From: Minisyncoccota bacterium
GTDB taxonomy: Bacteria > Patescibacteriota > Minisyncoccia > Phycocordibacterales > UBA9973
Reading direction: 5' to 3'
Assembly (NCBI GenBank): GCA_942491275.1
Contig: CALNZI010000007.1
Location: 63,353-127,352, forward strand
Length of the DNA: 64,000 bases
Shown: positions 46,112-64,000 of the stretch, in pieces
Position numbering within the stretch: the stretch's first letter is position 1
Layout of the letters: every line of letters begins with the position of its first letter
Program-made: the position numbers and the translations under genes
Notes under the pieces: generated by a model
What the model saw: only the letters and a program-made list of their open reading frames with translations
What the model was told of the DNA's origin: nothing
The model's database searches: none

Positions 46112-46745
46112 ATGGAAAATACACAAGTAATTATTTTAGCAGCAGGAAAGGGGACAAGAATGGAGTCTGAAGACCCCAAGGTTCTTTCTTTGCTTAAGAA
46201 GAAACCATTTCTAAAACACATATTAGATACTCTTTCTCATTTAAAACTAACCCTTGAGCCGGTAATTGTTGTTGGATATATGAAAGAAAGAATATCTGAA
46301 GTAATTGGGAAAAATTTTAATTATGCTCATCAAAAAGAACAATTAGGAACTGGTCACGCAGTTCTTTCGGCTAAAGACTCAATGCACTCAGACCATAAAA
46401 CAGTTATGGTTATTTCAGGAGACCAACCACTGGTTTCTAAGGGCACTTTAGAAAAATTAATAAAGGTTCATAAAAAGAATAATTCAATGGTTAGTATTGC
46501 TACTGTTAAATTACCTGATTTTAATGAATGGAGGGAGGGAGCTCTCACTTGGGAAGAGTTATAAGAGATGAAAATGGTAAAGTCTTAAAAATTGTTGAAA
46601 ATAAAGACGCCACCGAAGAAGAGAAAAAAATTACAGAAATAAATTATGCTTTGTATGTTTTTGATGGAGATTGGCTTTGGGGAAATATAGATAAATTAAA
46701 AAATGAAAATGCTTTAGAGCAACCAGTGTCAAGTTTGTCGGCGAT
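46112..46745 (+). pseudogene. GlmU-like sugar-1-phosphate nucleotidyltransferase N-terminal domain, frameshifted and truncated at the composition junction
   Basis: [17 protein letters not shown]...GTGHAV...ISGDQPLV, then a frame change near 46530-46550 (a gggaggga run), continuing [24 protein letters not shown]. The AT-rich sequence ends around 46745. Confidence 0.55.
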
Positions 46746-47475
46746 AAACAGATTGTGGTCATTCCCAATACCCCCTTCCTCTGGGGTCCGGAAGCCAGCG
46801 TCAGTAGTGGTATCCGGGCGCGACTTCACCTAAGTTGAAGGTTCAACGTTTCTGGTTCCTGGTCAGCCTTGCCGGCATTCGGGCTATTCGTTACTAAATC
46901 AACCTTGGTTACACCAGATTATTGCGAGCCGTCCGCCGCCAGGCGACATTCCGTCTTAAATGAGTATATTGACACATCCGCCTTCATCGATTCCCCGGGA
47001 ATTCGGCCGGTACCGAGCGCCCGCATCCAGACTGGCCACACCGGGCGCGGTACGATTGGCGACGGCCTTTGCTGTGGTGCGCAAATTTGCCGCGGTCGTT
47101 TAGCAAACCATGACCGACTCACCGTTGGCGATTTCCGATACCGGGCATCAGCGGAATTAATCAGATCGCATCGTCGCTTTTTTGTTTCAGATGGGGGATA
47201 TTTATCAAACATCGATAAGACCCTGGTCCTGGCTGTGCGGACTGATGACCGTGGATCGGATAGTGCTTAACCGCGGCATCCCGAGGCTGCTTTCCAGGGC
47301 TCGATATGCGTCAGGAGGGGTGGAATCCGGTCGTTTTTTCATCGCCGCTATTTAACAGCTGTAGATCTCGATCTTGCCCGATGGCGTCGGGAAGGGGTTG
47401 TTTACCGGATCATCGATCTGTTCGCGAAAGGCAGCGGGGTGTTTCAATTCAATTTTGGTGAGCAGCATCAGCTGT

Positions 47476-48600
47476 TTAAATGCTTGTCGTGTTCAAACCC
47501 GGTGTGTTGTGCGATATATTTGATGTGATCGAATGGAGGTAAAGCCAGTCAGTCCCAAAACGCTCAGCCAGCTGGGTAAAAATTGTGTCAGATCGGAGCG
47601 GGTTTCGGGCCGGGGTCAGGGCCGATTCATATAGATAACAAGGTCCGCCAAGCCACGGTTGGGCGATGTCTTCTTCTTCCAGAAAATGGGTGACCGGCAA
47701 CACGATATCTGCCCAGCGGGCCGTTGGCGTCATGAAAAGATCGTGGACCACGATACATTCCGGGCGTTTTAACCCTTGCAGACCTTTATTTATATTTTGA
47801 AACTGATTTAACAGGTTGCAGCCCACGATATAAACCAGCTTGATATCGGCTTCAAACCCACCGGCTTTTCCCTCCAGCAGGGCGTCATAAATTTGGGTTA
47901 GATGGATTTTCGGATTTCTTTGCCGGGGTACCTCCATCGGATCGGCAATTGCGCCCGCTTTCGATATACCCAGGCCCGCCAGCCACCTAGCCCGCCTTTA
48001 TTGCCGATGTTGGCGGTCATGGCTGCCAGGGTAATGGCCGACCGGTGGAATTGTTCACCAAATGCGGTCCGGCCGGTTTCTCATCCCGTAAACGGTGCCG
48101 CCGGTTTAGATTGGGCATATTCTCTGGCTGAGGTCGTGATGTCATCTGCTGTTACACCAGTGATTGGTGAAGCCCATTGCGGTGTTTTCGGAATCCCGTC
48201 CCCATCTCCCATCACATAGTGCATTGAAATCGTAGAGAACACCTTCAGTACGCCGGGTCTTGATAAACTCATGATCGTAATATTCTCGGATATCATCACC
48301 TGGGCCATGGCAGCAGCATATGCGTGTCGGTAGCCGGTTTGATGGCTTCTATCCATTGGTTAGCCAACATTGCCGACAGGCTCAGGCGCGGGTCCACACA
48401 GACGATCCGGGTGCCGTTCCTTTTGGCCTGTCTTAAATAAGCGTATCCGGACCAAAGCGGGAGACCAGCGGATTCAACCCACATGATAATCAGTCTGGAA
48501 TACAGCAGATTGTCATGACTTACCGGTAATTGAGCTGCCCAAGGTGGCTGTGCCGCGAAATTGGCTGATTCGAAGGGCATTGCCGCTGAGGACACTGCAC
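47476..48600 (-). pseudogene. Molybdopterin (DMSO reductase family) oxidoreductase fragments, multiply frameshifted and truncated
   Basis: Pieces ...RIVCVDPRLSLSAMLANQWIEAIKPATDT..., ...YAAAMAQVMISENITIMSLSRPGVLKVF... and ...ECIVVHDLFMTPTARWADIVLPVTHFLEEED... lie in different minus-strand frames. The N-terminal region is absent. Confidence 0.5.
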
Positions 48601-48631
48601 CCGCAAACATATTAAAAAAACGCCTGCTATT

Positions 48632-54298: not shown

Positions 54299-56522
54299 AT
54301 GCGGCACCGTCTCAAGCCCATCGCGTTCACCCTGCTCTGCACTTTCGCGCATCACGCCAGCGCGAATACCGAGTGGCTTGCCTTGCGCATGGACAAGACT
54401 TTCATGGCGATGTCGGAGCCGGCAGAGGAACCGCCCACCTTCATGGAAGCCGACCGCCTGACGGGCAAAAAGGAAAGCCAGATCGAGGCGCATGGGCAAC
54501 GCGGTACTGCGCAAGCGCGAGCCAGTCCATCAAGGCGGATCGCCTGCTGTATTTCCAGGATACCAGTGACCTCGACGCACAGGGCTCGGTGGTACTGGAA
54601 CAGGGCGGCAACACGATGCGCGGCCCGCACCTCAAGCTGAACCTGGATACCGATATCGGCACCATGGAACAACCGGTATTCTATCTTGCGGAAAATGACG
54701 GACGCGGTTCGGCGGACATGATGCACATCCACGACAAGGAGCATTACACGCTCGACAATGCCACCTATACCACCTGCCCCGCCGATAACGAGGACTGGCT
54801 GCTGAAAATGCGCGGCCCGGAAATCGACCGCGACCGGCAGATAGGCACTGCCCATCATGCCTGGGTAGAGTTCATGGGCCTGCCGATCCTGTATTCCCCA
54901 TGGATGGACTTCCCGCTCAATGACCGGCGCAAGTCTGGTTTCCTGTCGCCGGTATTCGGCAGCACCACCAAGGGCGGCAAGGAACTGACCCTGCCCTATT
55001 ACTGGAATATTGCGCAGAACCGCGACGCGACAATCGCGCCGCGTGCAATGACCAAACGCGGCATATCGCTCAATAATGAATTCCGCTACCTGGAATCGGG
55101 CTATAGCGGCGAGCTACAACTGGATGTATTGCCCGACGACAGGCTGGCCAGACGCAGCCGCACCCGCGTATCGGTTGTCCATAAACAAGCCATTGCAGGC
55201 GGTCTGAACGGCTATGTCAACCTGAACAGCGTTTCGGACGACGCCTATTTCCGCGACCTGGGCAGCACCATCAATGCCACCTCGCAGGCCAACCTGTTGC
55301 AGGAAGCGGTTTTGACCTATGGTGACGGCTGGTGGAATGCGGCCGCACGCATCCAGCGTTACCAGACCCTGCAGGATCCCACCGCCCCGATTGGCGCACC
55401 ATACAAGCGCCTGCCGCAATTGACGGTCAATGCACAACAGAGTTATTCGGATGCCCGTCTGGCCTTTGCCGGCGAGTTCGTCGATTTCAGCCACCCCACC
55501 GCGCTGGAATGTGCGAGACGCCTGGTCATCCATCCCAGCGCCAGCTATCCCCTGACTGTCGATCCGGCCTTTTACGTAACGCCGAAAATCGCGCTGCACA
55601 GCACGCACTATGTACTGGAAGCGAACAACCGCAATACTCTGCCGAACGCTTCGCGCACCCTGCCCATCGTGAGCGTGGACAGCGGGGTGGCTTTCGAGCG
55701 CGACTGGGATCTGTTCGGCGGTAGTTATGTACACACCCTCGAGCCGCGCGCCTTTTATGTTTATGTGCCCTACAAGGATCAAAACCAGCTGCCCAATTTC
55801 GACTCGGCCCAGGCCAATTTTGATTTCACGCAGATGTTCACCGAAAACCGTTTCTTCGGCAACGACCGGGTGGGGGACGCAAACCACGTTACGCTGGCCG
55901 TCACTTCACGCCTGCTGGAGCCCAGAGAAACGGCATGGAGCGACTGAAATTATTGATAGGCGAACGTTTCAGCTTTAAGACCCCCCGTGTAAATCTGGTT
56001 GCGCCCACGACCACCACCAGCAAATCCGACATTCTGCTCGCCGCCTCCGGCAGGCTGACCAATGCGTGGTCTTTAGACAGCGAGTTCCAGTACGACCCCA
56101 ATCAGTCGCACAGCCAGCGCTACAACATCGCTTCGCGTTACCGGCCGGAAATCGGCAAATCCTTCGACCTCGGCTACCGCTTTTCACGCAACACCTTGCG
56201 CCAGATCGACGTTTCCGGGCAGTGGCCGCTGTCCAGCCACTGGCGTGCAATCGGGCGCCTGAACTATTCGCTGCAGGACGGCAAAACCTTGGAGTCGATT
56301 GCCGGGCTTGAGTATAATCAAAGCTGCTGGACGCTTCGTTTCGTAGCGCAACGTTTTACTGTCGCGCAGCAGGATGCCAATACCGGCCTGTTCCTGCAGC
56401 TTGAATTGAATGAATTTATCAGTGTCGGCGTCGACCCCATCAACGCTTTGAAGCAAAGCGTGCCGAGCTATACAAAGTTGAACGAGAAAACCCCCAACAA
56501 ACCCGGTTCAGCCCTGCGCTGA
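54299..56522 (+). pseudogene. lptD: LPS-assembly protein LptD, interrupted by at least 4 frameshifts
   Basis: Signal peptide MRHRLKPIAFTLLCTFAHHASA, OstA-like N-terminus, then beta-barrel segments in shifting frames (breaks near 54,490-54,520 and 55,925-55,945). Confidence 0.7.
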
Positions 56523-59829: not shown

Positions 59830-61237
59830 TCAGCCTATCCCATGCTGCTTCAGTTTTTTCCACAACGTGGTGCGCGACATGCCAAGCTTCTCGGCAGCAG
59901 CGGCCTTGTTGCCCCCGGTTTCCTTTAACGCAGCCATGAGCATCTCTTTTTCCTGCCCTTCCTGTTGCACGGGCGCGCGGTAATAGCGCTGCACGAGCGC
60001 TACCGCCGGTGCCGTAACGTTCGCAGCACGCAAATCGGCAACCTGATGGCCGGCCTCCTGGATTTCGGGCGGCAAATGGCGTGCCAGGATTGCAGTGCCG
60101 TCCACGTGAACCATGGCATATTCCAGGGCATTGACCAGCTCCCGGACGTTGCCCGGCCAATTGTAGGCGCCCAGCGCATCCAGCGCCTCGCCGGAAAGCT
60201 GTATATCGCGCCCCGGGAGGCGGGCAAGCATATTGGCCAGCATGGTGCTGGCCAGCAACGGGATATCCTCACGGTGCTCGCGCAAGGCGGGAACGTGCAA
60301 GGGGAGCACACGCAAGCGGTAATAAAGATCCGCGCGGAATTCACCGCGACTGACCATGGCCGGCAAATCGCGGTGCGTTGCCGCAATAATGCGCACATCC
60401 ACCTTGCGGGTCTGGTTTTCGCCGAGCCGCTCGATTTCGCGCTCCTGCAAAACACGCAACAGTTTTACCTGAACGTTCAGGGGCACTTCGCCGATCTCGT
60501 CCAGCAACAGCGTTCCGCCGTGAGCGGCTTCAAAACGGCCTTCGCGTGCGGTAGCCGCACCGGTGAATGCGCCGCGCGCGTGGCCTGAACAATTCACCCT
60601 CCAGCAACTGCTCGGGAAAGGCGGCACAGTGCACTCGTATATAAGGCCCCTTGGCACGGCTCGGCTAATTGTCATGCAGCGCACGCGCAACCAGCTCCTT
60701 GCCGGTGCCGCTCTCTCCGGTAATCAGGATGCTGGCCTCGCTGGCTGCCGCCCGCAGTATCTGGCGGAACAAGTCCTGCATGACACCGCTGTGCCCGACC
60801 AGGCCGCCCAGGCGCAGCCTGTCGCTGGCCGCCTCTTCCAGTTGCACCTCCTGAGTCCGGTCGCGCAACACCACGGCACAATATGCCAGCTTCTCGTCGG
60901 AAGGCAGCACCATGGCCCACATGCGCAACGGAACCAGCGTCCCGTCCGGGCGCTGCACGACCATGTCCTGGATTTTTTTCCCCTGTATCGCGTTTTTCAT
61001 CAGCGTGCAATGCCCTCTTTTTTCGCAGCTTCGCGCACAGGACGTTCCCTGGAAAATGCTGGGGCAGAGCTTGTTCAGGATATTGTCGTGATCCTGGCCC
61101 AGCATGCGGCTGGCCGCTTCATTGATCGCCACCACCTGGCGTTGCTGATCAAGAAAAAGAATGCCCTCCTCAAGATTGTCCAGGAATTGGCTCAGGCCGG
61201 ATAATGTAATCATAAACCCTCTCACTTTCGTTAACAC
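59830..61237 (-). pseudogene. Sigma54-dependent transcriptional activator with N-terminal Cys-rich PAS domain, frameshifted around 60,560-60,690
   Basis: PAS-like N-terminus with CPSIFQGTSCARSCEKRGHC, Walker [18 protein letters not shown], then in other frames [23 protein letters not shown] and a C-terminal Fis-type HTH ([15 protein letters not shown]). Confidence 0.7.
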
Positions 61238-61339
61238 GTTAACAGTTGACGCATGTTAACGTCACATCTTTACACTGTCAACCCTTGCCGCAACACACAT
61301 AAAAACGGCAAGTTATTGATATTAAATTGATTGTTATTT

Positions 61340-61357
61340 GTGGCACGGTAAATGCTT
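61340..61357 (+). promoter_or_regulatory. Sigma54 (-24/-12) promoter
   Basis: tTGGCACggtaaaTGCTtg: GG and GC separated by exactly 10 nt, one mismatch to the TGGCAC-N5-TTGCW consensus, about 62 nt upstream of the ATG. Confidence 0.6.
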
Positions 61358-61418
61358 GTAAGTTGGCATAGGCGGTCTTTCGGTACCGCCCCAATCAACA
61401 ACTTAAGGAGTGATCATC

Positions 61419-61929
61419 ATGAAACTGAACAAACTTGCCTTGACCTTGACTACCGCAGCCTTGCTGCCAACCTTTGCCTTCGCCGGCGCAGATCCCGTTG
61501 CCACCAGCTTCGAGCGCGACCTGAACCGCACCGCCACCACCGGGACCACTATCGTGGCCAAGTCGGCTGCCGACCCACTGGACATCATCAACCAGATCAT
61601 CGGCCAGGCTCCGGATGTTGTCGTAGCCAGCTTTGACCGCGACCTGTACCGCGCACCGACCGTAACGCCGGCCGTGTCGTTCGCCGGGGCAGCCGATCCG
61701 CTGGATGCGATCAATGTCGCGTTCCGCAGCGGCGGCAGCAACGAGCAAACCACCATTCTGGCGAGCTTCGAACGCGACCTGTACGCGCGTGCCGACTGTT
61801 TCTGCGGCAGTGAACGCCGGAACGGCTGACCCGCTGGTGGAAGCGTTCAATGTGGCCTTTTACGGCACGACCACCGATCAGGTACTGGCCAGCTTCGAGC
61901 GTGACCTGAACCGCACCTTTGCCGCATAA
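61419..61929 (+). CDS. Small secreted protein with four ~40-aa repeats ending in ASFERDL(N/Y)R, one frameshift near 61,800
   Basis: RBS aaggag; signal peptide MKLNKLALTLTTAALLPTFAFA; repeats containing AADPLD(A/I)IN...(A/T)SFERDL(N/Y)R. Confidence 0.5.
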
Positions 61930-62061
61930 GCGTGTTGACCGGGCGGGCACCTCATGGCCCGCCCACCCGACGAATGTCTTGACTGCCTCCCAAGATAGTT
62001 GAGACTTCGGCCCCCCTCCCCTCAGGGACTTTTTTGGGTGGCGCATCATCACATGCAGCGC

Positions 62062-64000
62062 TCAGGCAGCAGCCAGATGCATGCCATCAGTGGATTGCCT
62101 CTCCAAGAACCTGCTTGAAACAGGCTCTAAATCCGTTCCTCGCGCCGCCGCAATGCATGCCACACCCATGCACTGACAGCAACAATACTGCGGCCAGCAG
62201 CCACAGCGGCCACTCGGCAGGGCACAGTTCCACTTGCGGCGCAAACTGTCTCTCTGCCGGGCATCAAGACGCCAGTATTTAAGCTTGTTGTTCGCCATGA
62301 CATTGGGCTTCACGTTGTACAGCCAGCCATGCTGCAGCACATAGTTTTTCGGGTGAAAGCCCCACAGCCACGGCGAGTCGCGGCGCAGTATCTCCAGCAT
62401 TTTGTCGATGATGGCCTGGCGTCGCGGGCTGTTTTCCATGTTCTTCATCTGCTCGAACAGCCGGTCGTATTCCGGGTTGCTGTAGTTCGCCGCATTCTCG
62501 CCGTTCTGACCTACCTTGGCCTGTGCACCGTGCAGCAGGAACAGGAAGTTTTCCGGGTCGGGGTAATCGGCGTTCCAGCCGAAATAGAACATCTGCGTAT
62601 CGCCCTTGCGGATTTTGTCCTGGAAGCGGTTGTAGTCGGTGCTGCGCACCACCGGTTGCACGTTGATCTTCGGTCGAACTGCTTGCGCAGCCAGTCGAGG
62701 CGCGCCTTGCTGCCCACGCCGGCGGAAGTGGTATCCAGGTTGATCACCAGCGGCTGGCCGGTCTGCGCATTTACGCCGTCCGGATAGCCCGCCTCGGCGA
62801 GCAGTTTTTTTGCTTCTTCGATGGACTTGCGCGGTGCGCCATCCATCCAGTCATACACCTGGCGATTGACGCCTGCTTCGCCGTCGCGGTAGCCGAAGAT
62901 GCCCGGCGGGATCGGCGACTGCGCGGCGATGCCGCGCCCGTTGGCGAAAATCGAGATGAACTCCTCGAAGTCCACCGCGATGGCAATCGCACGCCGCAGT
63001 TTGGTTGCTCGATCGCTGTTGCCGCCCACCACCGGATCCAGCCAGTTGAAGCCGGTGTACATGGTGGAAGTCGAAACAGCGGTGGACAGGCTGATGCCCT
63101 GCGCCCGCATCGCGTCGGTCACGGCGGTTTCGCCGCCGACATTGACCTGCACCGCCTGGTCGAAACTGTCCGAGCTGATGCCGGAGGCGTCGTAATAACC
63201 CTGCAAGAATTTGTTCCAGTAGGGGATGGTCTCCTTTTCCAGACTGAACACCACCCGCTCGATCAGCGGCAGCGGCCTGCCCGCATCCGCCAGCAGACCG
63301 GATTCCCTGTCGCCCGCCTCACCTTCCGCCGGATAGGTCTCGCTGTCGTAATACGGGTTGCGCGACAGCACCATGCGCTGGTTGGGATTGTTCTCGGACA
63401 GGTAATACGGCCCGCTGCCTACCGGCCACCAGTCCAGCGTCAGATTGCGTTCGCGCATCCCCGGCTGCGCGTAGAAGCGCTCGGCCTCATGCGGCATCGG
63501 CGCGAAGAACGGCATCGCCAGCCAATACATGAATTGCGGGTATTTGCCGTGCACCTCGATACGGTAAGTGTGCGCGTCGAGCACCTGCACGCCCGGCAGG
63601 GGGTGTTCGTTCAGGTCGAGAAATGCATCGGGGTTTTTCCGTGCCGCCTGCCGCAAGGTCGCCGCATAATCCTTCAGACCGACGATATATTCGCCCATCA
63701 CGCCGAAAATCGGCAGGTGCAGATGCGGGTGCGCGAGGCGCTTGATCTGGTAGGCGTAGTCCGCCGCCGTCACGGCGCGCGTGGCGCTGCGCGGGAAATC
63801 GTTCAGCGCGTGGACGCCGCGCAAATCGTCCGGCGTCAGGCGCGCGTATTCCGGCACGAACGCCGGGTGCGGCTGGTAGCGCATGCCGGGCTTGATGCGG
63901 ATTTCGTAGACGCTGAAGGCGATCTTTTCCGCCGGCGCATCGTCCGGCAAGGCGCGGCGCTCCTTGTCCAGGTAGCGCACCGTTGGCATCTGCGCCGCCG
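62062..64000 (-). CDS. ABC transporter periplasmic substrate-binding protein, family 5 (peptide/nickel-type); frameshifted near 62,650 and 5' end beyond the window
   Basis: SBP_bac_5-type segments (...VINLDTTSAGV..., QMFYFGWNADYPDPENFL) across two frames. Confidence 0.6.

Follow-up and report, generated by a model that had tools for sequence, protein, structure and literature searches.

Sigma-54 activators encoded divergently from the sigma-54 promoter of a small envelope-stress protein are familiar from the ZraSR-ZraP and PspF-PspA systems, and the locus described here shares that layout. ZraP is a helical periplasmic protein from an enterobacterial module; its activator, ZraR, is switched on by the histidine kinase ZraS, and PspF is under the control of PspA. 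Cysteine-ligated [4Fe-4S] transcriptional regulators, another point of likeness, include FNR and NreB, the latter carrying its cluster in a PAS domain. To our knowledge, OrpR is the only described type of sigma-54 activator with an iron-sulfur (Fe-S) cluster. OrpR (DVU2106) from Desulfovibrio vulgaris Hildenborough is a redox-sensing sigma-54 activator with a [4Fe-4S] cluster in its PAS domain and conserved cysteines at C52, C61 and C65, and its homologs also conserve an Asp/Glu at position 54, two residues beyond C52, which was proposed as a candidate ligand of the cluster (PMC8359166). It works together with integration host factor (IHF), its regulon comprises only the adjacent operons, and FNR and NreB are cited for a comparable instability of the cluster (PMC8359166). 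We analyzed a 64,000-nt stretch of contig CALNZI010000007.1 (assembly GCA_942491275.1), hereafter the window, in which positions 59830–61929 hold two divergent genes separated by 205 bp. One gene encodes a sigma-54 activator with a cysteine-bearing PAS domain, and the other encodes a small secreted protein with repeated SF(E/D)RDL motifs. This module sits in a high-GC, Gallionellaceae-like, error-ridden 17-kb part of the window. Comparative sequence evidence shows that it is a real and conserved unit, which apparently serves a single small secreted cargo of variable identity, a conclusion drawn from the persistence of the pairing at a distance and from the existence of an alternative cargo.

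We assessed the pairing in a comparison set of about 100 related loci (L numbers below). When the search was anchored on the target, an activator ortholog (77–89% identical) was adjacent in 16/27 loci, usually divergent and sometimes convergent. For the reverse search, we used 35 metagenome-contig loci that were found by the PAS domain and had at least 700 bp of upstream flank. A repeat-family gene was adjacent to the activator in 23 of these (21 divergent upstream, 2 downstream) and absent in 12. Activator identity across the compared loci ranged from 58% to 89%, and the pairing persisted in distant members. L041, with an activator only 58% identical, has a target with ASFERGFDKG repeats and the promoter TGGCACGCATCATGCT, and a Thiobacillus bin combines a 72% identical activator with a single-unit target (DPVLASFEQDM...RDPLVEAIRAALHG). 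These counts bear out a preliminary description of the same DNA, which had proposed a compact regulator-target module and suggested co-occurrence as the check.

The loci without a repeat gene were informative as well. In 9 of the 12, the boxes and the promoter are kept and a different gene lies behind a longer leader (L051 2650–3000; L044, L047, L052–L055, L057 and L066; L115 4462–5000 are the loci with this alternative cargo). The encoded protein is secreted, is about 100 aa long, contains two cysteines and belongs to no known family (..EIYSGMSAAAIQKDQ..TCAWHEA..DQLHAAYPG..NFVC-stop). Its leader of about 110 nt apparently forms two hairpins, a strong terminator lies downstream of the gene, and L066 carries two tandem copies. 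In a profile–profile comparison, the two cargo families shared nothing past the signal peptide. In Candidatus Ferrigenium straubiae, the gene order lptD-surA-pdxA-ksgA-activator is that of the window, and the cargo is the alternative one with its strong terminator; literature searches on Gallionellaceae and sigma-54, and on Ferrigenium straubiae expression at this locus, returned nothing specific. A deletion scar was found in L046 (2880–3000), where the boxes and the IHF-like site are kept and TGATGGCATAGC is directly followed by unrelated DNA and a TolC-like gene; neither the promoter core nor the cargo gene is left, and the activator is intact.

A near-consensus sigma-54 promoter sequence about 62 nt upstream of the repeat gene had been described previously, and we confirmed it by position, spacing and conservation. 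The element (TGGCAC-N5-ATGCT) has the GG-N10-GC spacing of the TGGCAC-N5-TTGCW consensus, and its end lies 62 nt ahead of the start codon (ATG at 61419). Of 39 distinct regions upstream of family members, 35 carried the pattern TGGCA(C/T)-N5-NTGC, at a nearly fixed distance from the ATG (69–79 nt, once 110; 74–79 nt in 32 of these regions). TGGCA and TGC are (nearly) invariant in the upstream alignments, and the flanking sequence varies. This comparative evidence supports the view that a sigma-54 promoter would drive the secreted repeat protein. Two divergent family members lack a sigma-54 promoter (L018 and L030, upstream of 4001); they share another upstream motif (..TTAAATGGCAA-N-GAGC..), L018 retains the leader hairpin, and such paralogs may be under different regulation.

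Upstream of the promoter, the block aaA(C/T)GTTAAC-n-GTGAACG-nn-ATGTTAACGTT-n13-CTGTCAAC is conserved in 22 loci. It is retained in target copies without an adjacent activator (the infA locus of L001 and of L039; L037; L028), which argues that it would be the activator-binding region and more than the activator's own promoter. In L037, for instance, GTTAAC occurs at −178, −160 and −138, with spacings of 18 and 22 bp. The preliminary description had listed three GTTAAC copies here. All are present (61230, 61238, 61255), the second and third being conserved and the one at 61230 specific to the window, and the conserved GTCAAC box at 61277 is an addition to that list. Two dyads had also been put forward as activator sites, TGACG-N8-CGTCA (61247–61264) and TTGCCG/CGGCAA (61285–61311, with a spacer of 15 nt rather than 17). 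Both exist, and each was found in 1/24 upstream regions, namely the window only; neither being conserved, we ruled them out. The hexamers of a sigma-70-like promoter for the activator gene (10/12 consensus matches in the scan) coincide with the conserved GTCAAC and GTTAAC boxes. This overlap with two upstream activator boxes suggests that the activator gene is autoregulated and resembles PspF, where activator sites overlap the regulator's own promoter.

Between the boxes and the promoter lies a putative IHF bending site, which is conserved along with them. Its conserved columns are tAa...aTTGATt, and the strict consensus (YAA-N4-TTGATW) was present in 19 of the 35 promoter-bearing upstream regions. 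About 5 nt past the predicted mRNA 5' end, the leader contains a conserved hairpin, in the alignment of which 88% of cells are paired (31–62% for slid controls) and 4/8 pairs show compensatory changes, with many of the changes being G-U. RNAalifold returns its 5-pair core, and the window RNA folds the hairpin. Rfam searches with this leader and with the leader of the alternative cargo gave sub-threshold noise only. Downstream of the repeat gene, a GC-rich hairpin read from the sequence was not called by the terminator scan and may be a 3' end or stabilizer. Co-transcription of the repeat gene with the downstream SBP_bac_5 binding-protein gene was ruled out, as the latter is convergent. Extra copies of the repeat gene were seen elsewhere in some genomes (L001 5286–5795, L039 6001–6663, L037, L028, L015, L010, L020), for example downstream of infA. 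These keep the promoter, the upstream boxes and the leader hairpin and lack the adjacent activator; in such genomes, the activator probably acts on two or more loci.

For the activator, after removal of the two insertions, Pfam assigned PAS_9 (residues 16–121), Sigma54_activat (PF00158, 138–305, E 4e-70), AAA_lid_14 and HTH_8 (PF02954, 420–456, E 7e-16). Walker A (GESGTGKE) and the GAFTGA loop were both seen in the translation, as in a sigma-54-interacting AAA+ domain, and the C-terminus is a Fis-type helix-turn-helix (HTH). No NCBIfam equivalog (NtrC, NifA, NorR, AtoC, ZraR and others) was reached at its cut-off. The earlier identification of a divergent PAS–sigma-54 activator thus stands as to the domains; what it missed is that the gene is broken by two insertions, so that the frame is interrupted in the window. 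The cysteine cluster in the PAS domain was also present as described, except that the first gap is x8 and not x7 (C-x8-C-x3-C-x5-C). Across 14 full-length orthologs and 24 additional PAS homologs (mostly stand-alone, 121–130 aa long), none of the four cysteines varies, and all are retained in the L041 and Thiobacillus activators. The AlphaFold2 (AF2) model of the PAS domain (predicted local distance difference test, pLDDT, 75) has a LOV/FixL/DosP-like fold and places the cysteines in a helical stretch (residues 42–62). A PDB sequence search and Foldseek with this model returned generic PAS, LOV, FixL and DosP structures only, with no Fe-S PAS structure among them.

The first three cysteines are spaced as in OrpR, C-x8-C-x3-C in both (50/59/63 here and 52/61/65 in OrpR), which agrees with the redox or metal sensing suggested by the preliminary description. 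The two activators also share their domain order (N-terminal PAS, AAA+, HTH), a small regulon beside the regulator gene and an association with IHF, used by the OrpR system and represented here by the conserved IHF-like site. OrpR belongs to a deltaproteobacterial anaerobe, whereas the activator studied here is from betaproteobacterial microaerophiles. Because the targets here are unrelated small secreted proteins, the activator is at most a paralogous or analogous member relative to OrpR. The module had been called apparently uncharacterized; this holds for the repeat protein, which has no known family, and not for the sensor type, which has a published precedent in OrpR. NreB is a histidine kinase with another cysteine spacing and no sigma-54, and FNR is a CRP-family protein, also without sigma-54. 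ZraP and PspA bear no sequence relation to the target, which is a tandem-repeat protein in which Pfam finds no CpxP/ZraP or PspA domain, and the activator differs from ZraR and PspF in being a one-component PAS sensor. The module is, then, a fairly ordinary regulator-target pair of iron-oxidizing Betaproteobacteria, an OrpR-like one-component sigma-54 system with an uncharacterized cargo family.

The target had been described as a signal-peptide protein with four repeats. We found the Sec-type signal and four SF(E/D)RDL motifs (at 61506, 61629, 61764 and 61891), which are not, in the window, in a single open reading frame (ORF). The fourth motif is read in the next frame, and the third and fourth are joined after removing one base, as seen across the lesion in the closest homolog, P0001 (ASFERDLNRVPTT...). 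The mature protein is acidic (isoelectric point, pI, 4.3), and Cys, His, Trp and Met are absent from it. It has 209 homologs, all unnamed and mostly from Gallionella, Sideroxydans, Sideroxyarcus and Nitrosomonadales metagenome bins, and a scan of one genome per species gave 23 repeat-gene loci, almost all in Gallionellaceae. An exhaustive profile search of 1.84 billion proteins with one repeat unit yielded 131 representatives at 50% identity; these are 66–252 aa long, except for one weak 861-aa match (E 2.9e-4), and there was no convincing domain fusion among them. Searches against Pfam (E <= 1) and NCBIfam assigned the protein to no family.

Family members consist of a conserved signal peptide, the segment xVAASFERDLxR, and then 1–5 units of about 41 aa, each comprising a variable linker, ADPLxxINxAL, a short turn and xVLASFERDLYR. 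In many, the C-terminus reads ALWSE...HAA..SHRHGS. The single-unit Thiobacillus member suggests that the natural unit order is ASFER helix, linker, DPL helix. An AF2 model (pLDDT 49) showed short helix pairs and disordered linkers and was too poor for a fold search. The LTXXQ domain of CpxP/Spy/ZraP was absent from the window protein (Pfam, E <= 1) and from the families matched by 120 members. Three of these 120 members match Trypco1/Pepco (PF19493) over about 30 residues of the DPL...ASFERD segment. We rejected that identity, as only those three pass the Pfam threshold, the window protein does not, and the context is wrong: Trypco1/Pepco proteins belong to protease-adjacent antiviral defense modules, whereas this is a Sec-exported repeat family without a neighboring protease. 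The match was treated as due to chance or inflated by the repeats. Some repeat genes lie exactly at contig ends (L019, L020, L026, L029), which points to short-read assemblies breaking at the internal tandem repeats, and repeat numbers in databases may be unreliable. Coordinates are collected in Table 1.

Table 1. Positions of the module's features in the 64,000-nt window
Feature	Position	Strand	Description
Repeat-protein gene	61419..61929	+	169 aa after one-base removal; signal peptide aa 1–23 (61419–61487)
Repeat-gene lesion	61785..61789	+	1-nt insertion in GCGCG run; frame shift; frame 1 ends at TGA 61827–61829
Sigma-54 activator gene	59830..61213	-	459 aa after removing two insertions; two ORFs in window
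Activator lesion 1	60664–60666	-	3-nt insertion (AGC, coding strand), giving in-frame TAG 60665–60667 after ...ALHDN; ORF end 60665
Activator lesion 2	60586	-	1-nt insertion (A) after ...GELF, giving a frameshift
Cysteine cluster C50-x8-C59-x3-C63-x5-C69	61007..61066	-	Helical part of PAS domain; proposed Fe-S (or metal) ligands
Activator sigma-70-like promoter TTGACA-17-TAACAT	61253..61281	-	From consensus scan; predicted function
Upstream activating region	61238..61282	.	GTTAAC 61238, GTTGAC 61245, GTTAAC 61255, GTCAAC 61277; about 60–105 bp before the −24 element
IHF-like site CAAGTTATTGATA (reverse TATCAATAACTTG = WATCAANNNNTTR)	61309..61321	.	Between boxes and promoter; putative binding
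Sigma-54 promoter TGGCACGGTAAATGCT	61341–61356	+	−24 GG 61342–61343, −12 GC 61354–61355; predicted start near 61367
5' leader hairpin GGCGGTCTTTCGGTACCGCC	61371..61390	+	Near the predicted mRNA 5' end
Ribosome-binding site AAGGAG	61405..61410	+	Conserved in alignments
GC-rich hairpin (GGGCGGGC-8 nt-GCCCGCCC)	61941..61964	+	12 nt past stop; no T-run

The explanation that we favor, with a confidence slightly better than even, is a one-gene sigma-54 regulon under an OrpR-like activator, with a redox-responsive periplasmic cargo. The N-terminal PAS domain, carrying a cysteine-ligated iron-sulfur cluster, would report redox or oxygen state, and the activator would bind the GTTAAC-type boxes upstream of the promoter and probably limit its own synthesis. 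DNA would be bent at the IHF-like site, and the AAA+ domain would remodel sigma-54 RNA polymerase at the promoter. The resulting mRNA would be short and monocistronic, with the conserved 5' hairpin probably stabilizing it against decay. Its product would be a Sec-exported acidic protein of 1–6 units, each formed by two short amphipathic helices (DxVLASFERDLYR and ADPLxxINxAL) and a variable linker. By analogy to the modules around ZraP and PspA, and in view of the redox and metal setting, our best guess is that this may be an abundant periplasmic stress or cation-handling protein, induced on a redox shift in microaerophilic iron oxidizers. The sequences themselves show the domain content, the conservation of the cis elements, the adjacency of regulator and target and the invariance of the cysteines; the Fe-S cluster, the sensed signal, the direction of regulation and the biochemical role of the protein are what we infer here.

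Several observations weigh against this explanation. Sigma-54 dependence, activator binding and the cluster are predictions for this protein from its sequence, and the comparison with OrpR uses published cysteine positions and spacing rather than a sequence alignment. Where OrpR homologs have Asp/Glu 54, the activator has Ser (CPS(I/L)F), and it has a fourth invariant cysteine, C69, whereas none is reported as conserved in the OrpR paper; C69 could be a fourth cluster ligand. The palindrome recognized by OrpR (GGGCGYRTTTTGCGCCC) differs from the GTTAAC-type boxes, and OrpR acts on the orp operons, in contrast to one small secreted protein here. The leader region of the window folds no better than shuffled sequence (z = −0.46). 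As the cargo slot is variable, the repeat protein by itself does not define what the regulon does. Without His, Cys or Met, that protein is no soft-metal binder; its predicted structure is of poor quality, and the stress or cation role is proposed by analogy.

Two other accounts concern what is sensed and what is made. The four cysteines might bind a metal (Zn, Cd, Cu or Fe(II)) instead of an Fe-S cluster, in which case the activator would sense cytoplasmic metal and induce a periplasmic buffering protein, as in a ZraSR-ZraP-like metal-stress response. Four cysteines could form a tetrathiolate site, a stand-alone PAS paralog adjoins a CusAB-like resistance-nodulation-division (RND) efflux system, a His-rich periplasmic protein is encoded downstream of the cargo in L004 and L115, many family members have His-containing tails (..SHRHGS), and the alternative cargo contains Cys, His and Met. 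We nevertheless consider this account unlikely, since C-x8-C-x3-C is the spacing of an experimentally shown [4Fe-4S] PAS sensor, the window repeat protein contains no His, Cys or Met, and the recurrent activator neighbors (besides SBP_bac_5) are hemerythrins (O2/iron) and not metal pumps. As to the role of the repeat protein, the main alternative is a polyprotein precursor that would be cut after each ...SFERDLYR into peptides of about 40 residues, acting as signals or antimicrobials with copy number as dose. A short, highly conserved motif alternating with variable linkers, a copy number of 1 to 6, a partial unit directly after the signal peptide and the weak matches of 3/120 members to the protease-activated Trypco1/Pepco family would all fit such a precursor. 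It is weakened by the neighborhood, with a protease, modification enzyme or dedicated exporter adjacent in 0 of about 100 loci. The amphipathic-helix pattern of both conserved segments fits a folded unit, the Trypco1 match fails in 117/120 members, including the window protein, and the protease-adjacent antiviral context of that family is not seen here; we regard the precursor as improbable. A more far-reaching version of the favored explanation, in which an OrpR-like Fe-S redox switch with a dedicated, interchangeable cargo slot (the ASFER repeat protein or the two-cysteine protein, by lineage) serves iron- and sulfur-oxidizing Betaproteobacteria and the ASFER proteins form a new class of acidic repeat proteins that are secreted and manage Fe(III) or hard cations at the envelope on oxygen or redox change, for example against periplasmic mineral crusts, is speculative and quite unlikely to hold in full.

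Two further alternatives would undercut the module itself. If the promoter were a chance match, the gene would use an ordinary sigma-70 promoter, and the pattern is indeed not significant within the window alone (3 one-mismatch matches against 1.9 expected, with 28/100 shuffles equal). The argument for a genuine promoter comes from conservation across related loci and not from window statistics: the element is near-invariant at a fixed distance amid diverged surroundings, a sigma-54 activator is always adjacent or trans-acting, and the promoter scan found no sigma-70-like promoter on the + strand ahead of the gene. A chance match is therefore hardly credible. The window copy might, alternatively, be a truly decaying, non-functional pseudogene pair rather than a mis-assembly. 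It has three disabling insertions, none of which falls in a homopolymer run, and the target gene has been lost or replaced in related lineages, as in the L046 deletion scar. However, both activator insertions are confined to the window in a DNA alignment with six orthologs, and an intact allele is known from another public assembly (P0257, 459 aa), which differs from the repaired activator by one residue. Comparable lesions affect the nearby essential gene lptD (a frameshift near 55920) and the convergent SBP_bac_5 gene (frameshifts near 62670 and near 62170–62186), amounting to six indels in about 7 kb with the three in the module, and surA, pdxA and ksgA are intact. The window as a whole combines two unrelated organisms, as a chimera or a concatenation: base composition changes from about 31% GC over 1–46.7 kb to about 60% GC over 46.8–64 kb, with the switch near 46715 (46700–46730), inside a glmU-like ORF that is broken off mid-gene. 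Right past the junction (46730–48630), only gene fragments were seen, including a molybdopterin-oxidoreductase-like piece on the minus strand and a P-type ATPase without its N-terminus, which suggests further mis-joins. Considering the intact allele, the similar lesions in lptD and the binding-protein gene, and the chimeric window, the three insertions are most likely assembly errors in a poor contig, and true decay is a rather unlikely reading. For annotation, the case is a warning that chimerism and insertion errors affect this part of the source record.

The surroundings of the activator and its relatives gave further observations. Hemerythrin genes recur beside the activator or a stand-alone PAS paralog. 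Such stand-alone PAS proteins (121 aa in L032, 6001–6366; also L033, L034 and about 25 loci) match the activator's sensor domain at 65–70% identity, share its four cysteines and might titrate or mimic the sensor. Their neighbors are a DUF1924 protein, the CusAB-like RND efflux pair, a large oxidoreductase with flavin adenine dinucleotide (FAD)-, Fe-S- and cyclic nucleotide monophosphate (cNMP)-binding parts, and hemerythrin. As context for oxygen, iron or metal physiology, these neighbors are weak indications. The His-rich protein downstream of the cargo (L004 6584–7078, L115 3185–4170) is a conserved signal-peptide protein of 164 aa with His-rich ends (EDHSHSHGHEQ... HPGWHGAKHAH), and its gene separates the cargo gene from the SBP_bac_5 gene. 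A hemerythrin-like gene comes next in F. straubiae; the window has neither. In L006 and L035 (1100–4050), a gene for a NIT-HAMP-PAS-GGDEF-EAL signaling protein adjoins the activator on its other flank, opposite the cargo, and this pair is flanked by an ATP-binding cassette (ABC) permease gene and the SBP_bac_5 gene.

The analysis defines a small, unannotated secreted repeat family that comes with a regulatory handle, namely a promoter, activator boxes and a leader hairpin. The regulatory part is directly testable in Candidatus Ferrigenium straubiae strain KS, which has been isolated and for which transcriptome data exist. If the favored explanation is true, Fe-S-cluster sigma-54 activators would extend from strict anaerobes, represented by OrpR, to microaerophilic iron and sulfur oxidizers, organisms of the oxic-anoxic boundary, to whose biology redox sensing is central.

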